Of a stretch of 64,000 nucleotides of DNA, positions 18,698 through 37,989 are shown in pieces (position 1 is the stretch's first letter; every line of letters begins with the position of its first letter). The stretch is from NCBI RefSeq assembly GCF_003334355.1, contig NZ_QOWP01000001.1; one strand, 5' to 3'. The notes beneath the pieces were generated by a model, which worked only from the letters and a program-made list of their open reading frames with translations, was not told where the DNA came from and did no database searches. The translations under genes were made by a program, and so were the position numbers. The DNA is from Escherichia coli. Its GTDB lineage: Bacteria; Pseudomonadota; Gammaproteobacteria; Enterobacterales; Enterobacteriaceae.

Positions 18698-18842
18698 TCT
18701 TCATCACTTTGACATTCAAATCCCTTCAAGCTCCCCCGGCAATAAGAAAAGCGCGTACTGAAATCGTTCTCAATCAACGTCATTTGTACATTTTGTGCGC
18801 TTTTCACTTTCAGAAGAACCTTAAGAAAACCTTAAGAAGCAT

Positions 18843-24508: not shown

Positions 24509-24599
24509 AATCTGATAGACCGCGCCTTGAAAAGAGGCCAAAGCCTGCCATTTTTAGCTCAATTCGGCGATGACCTGGATCAATCGTCCCGGCCTGCTT

Positions 24600-24962
24600 T
24601 TATCAACTGCATAATCAATCAAAATTACCGAAATTTCATGCATAATCACATAAATCACTTTTGCTTATCTTGTGTCAGATTTTTTTATCTCCTTATGGAT
24701 TTTAGGCAAAAACAGTAGCATGAAACGTCATTACCAATTAAGGCAGTATAAAATGCTGGTTTTGTCGTCAGTTCAAGGCAGGATAAGGGTTAACACGCCT
24801 TTATGACAGTCAGGAATTGACTGTTTCTCTAACGACTTCCCTTTTAGCCTTAAAGATAAAATCTATTTTAATTTCAGTCAGTTAATAAAGAATTTTGCGC
24901 TAAAGCACATTTCTGTACCAATAAGCTTGCTATTTGACCTGTATCAGCTTTCCCGATAAGTT
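24600..24962 (+). promoter_or_regulatory. AT-rich gltBD upstream control region with candidate sigma70 promoter
   Basis: About 360 bp of AT-rich DNA upstream of gltB; TTGACC at 24934-24939 followed by a weak -10 near 24957. The gltBDF promoter is remembered as Lrp/IHF dependent; individual sites are not resolved here. Confidence 0.4.
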
Positions 24963-25089
24963 GGAAATCCGCTGGAAGCTTTCTGGATGAGCAGCCTGCT
25001 CATCATATTTATGCAGTAATTGAGATCCCCTCTTCACCGTATTAACCGATGCGAAAAGGACAACAAGGGGGCGAATGCGAGGCGCGCGT

Positions 25090-35695: not shown

Positions 35696-35763
35696 TGTGA
35701 GTCTCCCGCGGTGGGCGATGCCCACACGCTTTGGTATGAAAATTGTAGGGTACAGATGCGTTT

Positions 35764-36722: not shown

Positions 36723-36745
36723 TGATAAACGATATACCTTTATAC
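36723..36745 (-). promoter_or_regulatory. NanR operator: three GGTATA repeats in the nanA promoter
   Basis: Minus strand reads GGTATAACAGGTATAAAGGTATA, between nanR and the nanA start; matches the remembered NanR operator. Confidence 0.8.
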
Positions 36746-36818
36746 CTGTTATACCAGATCAATTAAGCAACACCCCATACAGAAAGCTTATAATGCGATC
36801 TGCTTCACTAAAGTGGCA

Positions 36819-37610
36819 TTATTTCTTTTTGTTGGTGGTCTGACCGAAAGCGTGCCAGGTAGCAGAGACGCTGTTGAGATGCGATTGCAACGCACGATCG
36901 GCTTCGTCAGGATCATGACGGCGGATCGCATCAACGATCGCAATATGCTGTTGATAACTAACGTTGTTATGTTCGTGCAGTGCCTGATCGGTAACCGTTG
37001 GGCGTGCGGCAATAAGCCAGTCGAGCAGGGCAACGTGGATCGCCATGAAGATTGGGTTACCGGGGATCTCCGCCAGCACGCGGTGGAAATCAACGTCTGA
37101 ACGAATGAATGCCGCGTTGTTATCCAGCGACTGACTGTTGATTTCCAGTGCTTTTGCCAGCAAATCGATTTGCTCATCGGTGGCATGTTCAGCCGCATAG
37201 CGCACCAGACTGGATTCAAAGAACAGACGTAATTGTTCGAAATGGGCAATCCCACCGGGATGAGAAAGGAAATCTTTCGCCATGCCGGAAAGCTCACCGA
37301 TGATAGTGTCCGCAGAAGGACGCGAGACGCGAGCGCGTTCGCCGTTGTTTATTTGCACCAGACCTTTGCGTTTTAACGCTGCCAGCGCTTCACGCACCGA
37401 AGGACGCCCGACGTTAAAGAACGCCATCAGTTCGCGTTCAGACGGTAATTGTTCACCTTCGCCAAATTCACGACGGCGGATCATCTGTTCCAGCTCTTCT
37501 TCCACCATTTCGGAGAGTTTTTTACGCGCCAGCGGGCGGCTACGCAAGTTGCGACCAATTGCAGGTGAAGAATCTTCGGTTTGCGAATCAAATGCGTTCA
37601 TAAGGCCCAT
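36819..37610 (-). CDS. nanR: GntR/FadR-family repressor of sialic acid catabolism
   Basis: 263-aa [47 protein letters not shown]... with N-terminal wHTH. Confidence 0.94.
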
Positions 37611-37989
37611 TCTGTAAGGTCAGTGTGATTAACATCATCAGTGACATCCTATCACAGGATTGAAAGTAGGGGAAAATGGCAGGGTTTTCTCTTTGTGCCT
37701 CATCATTACCATAATTAACGGAATAATTAACTATTGCGAAAAATTAATGTAACGCAGATAAAAACATCCCGTTTGAATTATTTATAAGACTATTCACGAG
37801 CATTATGAATATTATGAATGTGTTCTTACAAAATAATCATAAGCGCATATTTTTTAATGAAAAATCACCTCACCTACAATTAAAAACACGACATCCGCAC
37901 CATAAATAGCCTTGCAAAAAATATAACATCGTTGTTTTCAATCTGCCGTTTATGGGATTGACCGTTTTCTTTTGACACGGAGTTCAACA

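Follow-up and report, generated by a model that had tools for sequence, protein, structure and literature searches.

The AT-Rich nanR–dcuD Spacer of Escherichia coli: An H-NS-Covered Divergent Promoter Region with an Old, Almost Fixed Tandem Repeat

Introduction

The bgl operon is the textbook H-NS-silenced cryptic catabolic locus of Escherichia coli K-12. The dcuD gene shares several features with loci of this type: its upstream DNA is AT-rich and bound by H-NS, it shows no evident laboratory expression, and IS elements have been found upstream of it (IS1 in strain I3 and IS5 in laboratory evolution). However, the dcuD spacer is shared with the active divergent promoter of nanR, and for dcuD H-NS is a probable silencer. 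The locus also resembles xenogeneically silenced islands, because H-NS lies over an AT-rich stretch and the adjoining dcuD is variably present. In contrast to such islands, only the spacer is AT-rich, dcuD has the average GC content of the genome, and the locus is ancestral and syntenic in Citrobacter.

Short tandem repeats in phase-variable promoters are known as the contingency loci of Haemophilus and Neisseria. The nanR–dcuD spacer likewise contains promoters together with a short tandem repeat whose copy number differs between strains. However, this repeat has one to three units of 9 bp, and more than 99% of the genomes carry two copies. Among C4-dicarboxylate carriers, dcuD is akin to the expressed anaerobic paralogues dcuC and dcuB, and it is placed in the DcuC family (TIGR00771, NF007317). 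The dcuC and dcuB genes are FNR-activated in expression tables, whereas dcuD is not.

Here, we explored this spacer in a 64-kb stretch of E. coli DNA, which we call the window. The spacer proves to be ordinary and already catalogued: it is an AT-rich divergent promoter region covered by H-NS, and two genes, nanR and dcuD, share it as their control region. Much of this was already known: the locus is annotated, its H-NS occupancy stands in genome-wide tables, and the non-expression of dcuD has been reported since 1999. Our analysis makes three modest additions. Both dcuD and its AT-rich control region are ancestral, and they are cleanly missing from about one-fifth of complete E. coli genomes. 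The 9-bp repeat is nearly fixed at two units, with rare slippage variants. A few short conserved blocks, one of them an invariant 14-mer (AAAAATATAACATC), lie upstream of dcuD.

Results and Discussion

The Spacer and Its Neighboring Genes

Positions 37611–37989 comprise all of the DNA that separates the start codon of nanR from the ATG of dcuD (37990), and the two genes are divergent. The same DNA lies at 3374490–3374868 in MG1655 (U00096.3), and window coordinates equal U00096.3 coordinates minus 3336879.

36819–37610, minus strand: nanR (b3226), GntR-family repressor, sialic acid regulon
37611–37989, no strand: nanR–dcuD divergent intergenic spacer, 379 bp, GC 33.5%
37990–39357, plus strand: dcuD (b3227), DcuC-family C4-dicarboxylate carrier gene, GC 50.9%

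In order, the genes are nanT, nanA, nanR, dcuD, sspB, sspA and rpsI, of which dcuD alone is on the plus strand. The DcuD protein matches NCBIfam NF007317 over its full length (1027 bits, cut-off 623) and scores 675 bits against TIGR00771, and NanR matches NCBIfam NF003011.

The DNA of the window is E. coli chromosome, K-12-like but not MG1655, from which it differs at 67 places in the 10 kb compared. The spacer itself is 100% identical to that of K-12 strains. Among the 67 differences, 17 fall in the hairpin that separates dcuD from sspB (39359–39392), a bidirectional terminator, where compensating 1-bp indels in the flanking A/T runs are accompanied by loop substitutions.

Base Composition and Predicted Curvature

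The initial annotation had described about 380 bp of strongly AT-rich DNA upstream of dcuD. Our calculation bears this out: the GC content was 33.5% in the spacer versus 52.0% in the whole window, and just 0.35% of all 379-bp windows were as AT-rich. Of all GC minima in the 64 kb, the one in the spacer is the second lowest, and the GC content of nanR is 52.3%. The TpA frequency in the spacer was twice that of the window, and 18 A/T tracts of at least 4 bp were counted.

Curvature analysis, which had been proposed as a check, points the same way. The mean predicted curvature of the spacer (wedge model) was in the top 0.4% of 379-bp windows, a result that is indicative only. The high-affinity H-NS motif TCGATAAATT has one weak match in the spacer (37736–37745, two mismatches), and the density of sites similar to it was about twice that of the window.

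The two other deepest AT-rich minima of the window lie at about 48324–48702 (GC 0.31) and about 24598–24976 (GC 0.34). By approximate mapping, the aerobic H-NS ChIP-chip data of Myers et al. (2013) have bound regions over both of them as well.

H-NS Occupancy and dcuD Expression

Myers et al. (2013) reported H-NS ChIP-chip regions for aerobic and anaerobic cells (PMC3688515, Table S3), of which one in each condition covers this locus, at 3371888–3374315 and 3371957–3373402 of U00096.2, respectively. Window coordinates equal U00096.2 coordinates minus 3334903. The sspA and rplM peaks of the same source confirmed this numbering, as did the table of sigma54 sites in Bonocora et al. (dcuD 2,253 bp from 3370640).

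36985–39412, no strand: published H-NS ChIP-chip region, aerobic (PMC3688515 Table S3)
37054–38499, no strand: published H-NS ChIP-chip region, anaerobic (PMC3688515 Table S3)

The aerobic region spans the 5' two-thirds of nanR, the entire spacer and all of dcuD, and the anaerobic region spans the spacer and reaches 510 bp into dcuD. The whole spacer is thus inside both regions, in agreement with the H-NS binding expected in the initial annotation. Summed from the rows of PMC3688515, H-NS regions occupy approximately 20.6% (aerobic) and 18.7% (anaerobic) of the window. Therefore, the overlap with the spacer is supportive but only moderately specific. Because the GC content of dcuD is average (51%), the H-NS coverage of this gene may reflect either spreading or the resolution of the array.

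A statement in the literature that cites Janausch and Unden (1999) describes dcuD as not expressed under most tested conditions. This agrees with the earlier remark that dcuD is poorly expressed, and no sigma70 peak was found at the candidate dcuD promoter. The gene is absent from FNR/O2 expression tables that include dcuB and dcuC. No expression value for dcuD in hns or hns-stpA mutants was found in the H-NS transcriptome literature, and the supplements of Srinivasan 2015 and Kim 2012 (TSS) contained no dcuD or nanR entries. The initial annotation had compared the composition with that of H-NS-bound silenced promoters. Published occupancy and the dcuD literature support this reading, and from them we infer that H-NS is the cause of dcuD silence.

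Promoters and Conserved Blocks

We compared the spacer among Escherichia and Citrobacter species. The conserved footprint consists of the following blocks:

37646–37678, minus strand: nanR-proximal block ATCCTATCACAGGATTGAAAG..GGGGAAAATG
37831–37842, no strand: AAATAATCATAA
37898–37905, plus strand: CACCATAA, at the candidate dcuD −35 position, non-consensus
37917–37930, plus strand: AAAAATATAACATC, 14-mer invariant in 19 of 19 species
37956–37968: GATTGACCGTTTT
37973–37983, plus strand: dcuD ribosome-binding region, GGAG at 37979–37982

The sigma70 ChIP-seq data of PMC3688515 show a sole sizeable peak in the spacer, at window position 37628 (score 728), which is at the nanR end. The nanR promoter in the spacer is thus occupied by sigma70 RNA polymerase. 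The nanR-proximal block reads TTCCCC-17 bp-TGTGaTAGGAT on the minus strand, with TTCCCC at −35 (37674..37669), TG at 37654–37653 and the −10 hexamer at 37651..37646. We take this block as the putative nanR promoter, of the extended −10 type (TGnTAGGAT), because it is retained in strains that lack dcuD and the sigma70 peak is only about 25 bp away; it is retained in Citrobacter as well.

At the dcuD end, the same data show no sigma70 peak near 37925, and two weak peaks are located inside dcuD (38124 and 38647). The best core-promoter candidate is a −10-like TATAAC at 37922–37927, in which the final T is missing and which has no −35 match. We therefore regard 37898–37930 as a putative weak dcuD core promoter. 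TATAAC with CACCATAA at −35 would be a poor sigma70 promoter, and this would fit both silence and activator dependence. The block AAATAATCATAA contains on its minus strand a −10-like TATGAT (37841..37836); its partner in the promoter scan was TTTTCA, located 16 bp upstream (37863..37858).

These promoter assignments for nanR and dcuD rest on conservation and consensus. For promoter prediction, another suggested check, a generic sigma70 and terminator scan returned two minus-strand promoter-like sites, no excess over shuffled sequence.

Conservation across Species and E. coli Strains

In a synteny scan in which each species was represented by a single genome, DcuD orthologues lay between nanR and sspB in 15 species of Citrobacter and in three Escherichia species other than E. 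coli. In these 18 species, identity to E. coli was 87–98% (amino acids) for DcuD, 89–99% for NanR and 87–98% for SspB. The spacer had a length of 356–387 bp and a GC content of 0.29–0.35 in all of them, and the GC content of dcuD was 0.49–0.55. The shared synteny and low GC content show that dcuD and the AT-rich region were inherited from an ancestor of Escherichia and Citrobacter and are not recent foreign DNA. However, the Citrobacter spacers are just 52–59% identical to that of E. coli. Low GC content has thus been maintained through sequence turnover, which argues for a functional or mutational constraint on composition.

One Negativicutes MAG contig (JAGOHU010000210.1, 2,762 bp, GC approximately 0.40) encodes a DcuD that is 75% identical to that of E. 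coli, while other Negativicutes hits are 42–46% identical. This could be caused by lateral transfer or by a mis-binned contig. Its upstream DNA is unrelated, so it made no contribution to the spacer footprint.

The spacer is present in 4,342 of 5,426 complete E. coli genomes. Another 1,040 have a nearly monomorphic nanR|sspB junction from which one segment is missing:

37675–39355 (approximate), no strand: 1.68-kb segment (distal spacer and all of dcuD) missing from 1,040 genomes

The dcuD-less genomes include ST131, UTI89, Nissle 1917, ATCC 25922 and APEC O1, and all those sampled that could be placed are of the phylogroup B2 type. The junction was compared between one such locus (L003, 4111–4219) and window positions 37675–39355. 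The retained 65 bp beside nanR are 56% identical and keep the conserved block, and the first 100 bp or so of nanR are 87% identical; both stretches are unusually diverged. This divergence hints that an allele was imported and that the segment was not simply deleted. In extent, the missing DNA almost matches the part of the aerobic H-NS region on the dcuD side.

Mobile elements have also entered the spacer. In the wastewater strain I3, an IS1 is inserted at 37889–37898 with a target duplication of about 10 bp, and a deletion bounded by IS1 in strain EC190486 extends from a yhcG-like gene across the nan genes and reaches the first dcuD codons. According to a bioRxiv preprint on laboratory evolution, IS5 inserted identically into the spacer in two lineages. 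The authors treat the insertion as a nan-regulation mutation, and their experiment favours derepression of the nan operon. This is consistent with a nanR promoter in the spacer.

The 9-bp Tandem Repeat

The tandem repeat that the initial annotation described is real, but its coordinates (37803–37820) were one base too far to the right. In that register the two units mismatch at the final base, and Tandem Repeats Finder gave an array identical to ours:

37802–37819, plus strand: exact tandem repeat ATTATGAAT, two copies (U00096.3 3374681–3374698); one to three copies among E. coli strains

When the spacer was shuffled 2,000 times with its dinucleotides preserved, only 4 of the shuffled sequences contained an exact tandem duplication whose unit was at least 9 bp long. 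The repeat therefore exceeds chance locally. Other exact tandem duplications in the 64 kb are a 9-bp unit, TTAAAGCAT, twice at 47855–47873, and an 11-bp unit, AACCTTAAGAA, twice at 18817–18838.

Strain comparison, also proposed at the outset, gave the following copy numbers of ATTATGAAT for the 4,342 spacer-bearing genomes:

One copy: 27 genomes, 26 with O145:H28-type flanks and 1 with K-12-type flanks
Two copies: approximately 4,300 genomes, the remainder
Three copies: 3 genomes, strains G5, BS15R-A and MEW

The genomes were counted with junction-specific queries that require a 28-nt exact word, and variants with nearby SNPs may be missed. Because the one-copy alleles occur on two flank haplotypes, at least two independent losses must have taken place. 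The exact repeat was not found in the 15 Citrobacter species. They have an imperfect two-unit version of equal length, for example TTTGTGAAA|TTTATGAAT, in which TGAA...GAA.ATG is conserved. The two-unit structure is therefore old and not a recent duplication, and in Escherichia its units simply happen to be identical. In summary of these counts, the ATTATGAAT repeat is an old, almost fixed two-unit structure in which one-unit slippage is rare. Each unit carries a −10-like hexamer, CATAAT, on its minus strand, and no sigma70 peak is found there.

Small ORF, Leader RNA and Other Regulator Sites

An open reading frame overlaps the repeat:

37805–37909, plus strand: 34-codon ORF (MNIMNVFLQNNHK...), no coding signature

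Its start codon occupies one alignment column, followed by at least 16 open codons, in 19 of 19 species, and its length varies from 16 to 34 codons. The pooled pN/pS was 0.98, the first codon position was the most variable, and no third-position periodicity was detected. The Shine-Dalgarno sequence is weak or absent, and an exact-sequence look-up returned only sporadic automatic “hypothetical protein” calls. Given its pN/pS, variable length and missing periodicity, this ORF is probably not a gene, and its conservation is better read as being at the DNA level.

A structured cis-regulatory RNA in the dcuD leader was rejected. The Rfam scan of 37300–38300 gave no match at E ≤ 1, and RNAalifold on the leaders of 16 species found no conserved structure (consensus −1.04 kcal/mol, 0 compensatory pairs).

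Consensus scans of the spacer for sigma54, NanR (GGTATA), Fur and IHF found no convincing site. Three GGTATA repeats, the known NanR operator, are located at the nanA promoter (36733–36755, minus strand) instead of in the spacer, and NanR autoregulation via the spacer was rejected on this ground. In the presumed nanR leader, TGTGATTAACATCATC (37624–37639) has two mismatches to both the CRP and the FNR consensus, and it is not conserved in Citrobacter. Besides this site near the nanR start, no FNR site within two mismatches was found upstream of dcuD. Of the three transcriptome sets of Myers et al. (PMC3688515), one flags nanR as “repressed” by FNR.

How Is dcuD Kept Silent?

We consider it probable that the spacer carries the nanR promoter and that an AT-rich, H-NS-nucleating region upstream of dcuD and a poor core promoter together keep dcuD silent. 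About 70 bp beside nanR would carry the nanR promoter, and the remaining 310 bp or so, AT-rich, rich in A-tracts and predicted to be curved, would be the upstream region of a cryptic dcuD. This DNA would nucleate H-NS, which would then spread over dcuD. H-NS and an intrinsically poor core promoter (TATAAC, no −35) would silence the gene in laboratory conditions, and the core promoter presumably needs an activator. The two-unit ATTATGAAT repeat is old, and replication slippage occasionally adds or removes one of its units.

It is possible, though we think it rather less probable, that dcuD is silent through its weak core promoter and its need of an activator or inducing signal, and that H-NS is a passive occupant of AT-rich untranscribed DNA whose removal would have little effect. 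The TATAAC element, without its final T or a −35, is yet invariant in 19 species, as would be expected of an activator-dependent promoter; the Myers dataset has broad H-NS regions, and a search of the H-NS transcriptome literature gave no derepression value for dcuD. However, H-NS is present in two conditions, its region being smaller anaerobically yet persisting over the promoter, and AT-richness is conserved despite sequence turnover. A horizontally acquired island, made up of the spacer and dcuD and under xenogeneic silencing, could in principle account for the H-NS binding, the absence of the segment from 1,040 of 5,426 genomes and the cataloguing of dcuD as an “extended-core” rather than a strict core gene. 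We regard this as highly unlikely and reject horizontal acquisition on the grounds of synteny and composition: nanR, dcuD and sspB stay together in three other Escherichia and 15 Citrobacter species with three similarly diverged proteins, and the 51% GC content of dcuD equals the genome average. Mobility genes, tRNA and flanking repeats are all absent at the locus, and the dcuD-less strains look like a clean loss beside a diverged nanR 5' end.

The repeat raises two further explanations. As a contingency (phase-variation) element, it would switch dcuD or nanR by slippage that alters the geometry of a promoter or the number of binding sites. This is extremely unlikely, because frequent slippage takes much longer tracts than one to three units, almost all spacer-bearing genomes (about 4,300 of 4,342) have two copies, and the Citrobacter version is imperfect, non-slippery and of equal length. 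The variation in copy number (one copy in 27 genomes on two haplotypes, three in 3) and the CATAAT hexamer in each unit would fit such an element, but sigma70 shows no peak at the repeat. The repeat might also be part of a translated small ORF or leader peptide (37805–37909) that controls dcuD, for its unit is in frame (I-M-N) and the start codon (ATG, GTG or TTG) is column-conserved with at least 16 codons open in 19 species. The neutral pN/pS, lack of periodicity, variable length, poor Shine-Dalgarno sequence, sporadic gene calls and lack of a leader RNA structure or Rfam match make this very unlikely. Older RegulonDB lists imply that a sigma54 promoter in the spacer drives dcuD, and the gene appears in a sigma54 promoter list derived from that database. 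However, the best GG-N10-GC (TGGCAC-N5-TTGCA) matches in the spacer have three to four mismatches of 11. Bonocora et al. (2015) assigned a sole sigma54 ChIP-seq site to dcuD, OA06 (TTGGTATGAAAATTGTA), and it is found in the nanT–nanA spacer at 35731–35747 (plus strand), 2,253 bp upstream of the gene. A sigma54 promoter in the nanR–dcuD spacer is therefore close to refuted. OA06 is antisense to the nan genes and points toward dcuD 2.25 kb away, and it may be the source of the RegulonDB listing.

A last alternative keeps H-NS as the default lock and reads the repeat and conserved blocks (TGAA-N5-GAA-N-ATG, AAATAATCATAA, CACCATAA and the invariant AAAAATATAACATC) as the operator of an undiscovered activator, or as a sequence-independent translated uORF, that switches dcuD on under a particular condition. 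We consider this unlikely as a whole. Within the preferred explanation, silencing of dcuD by H-NS and a poor core promoter, conservation of these blocks, including the invariant 14-mer, suggests that they mark candidate places at which a signal might activate dcuD.
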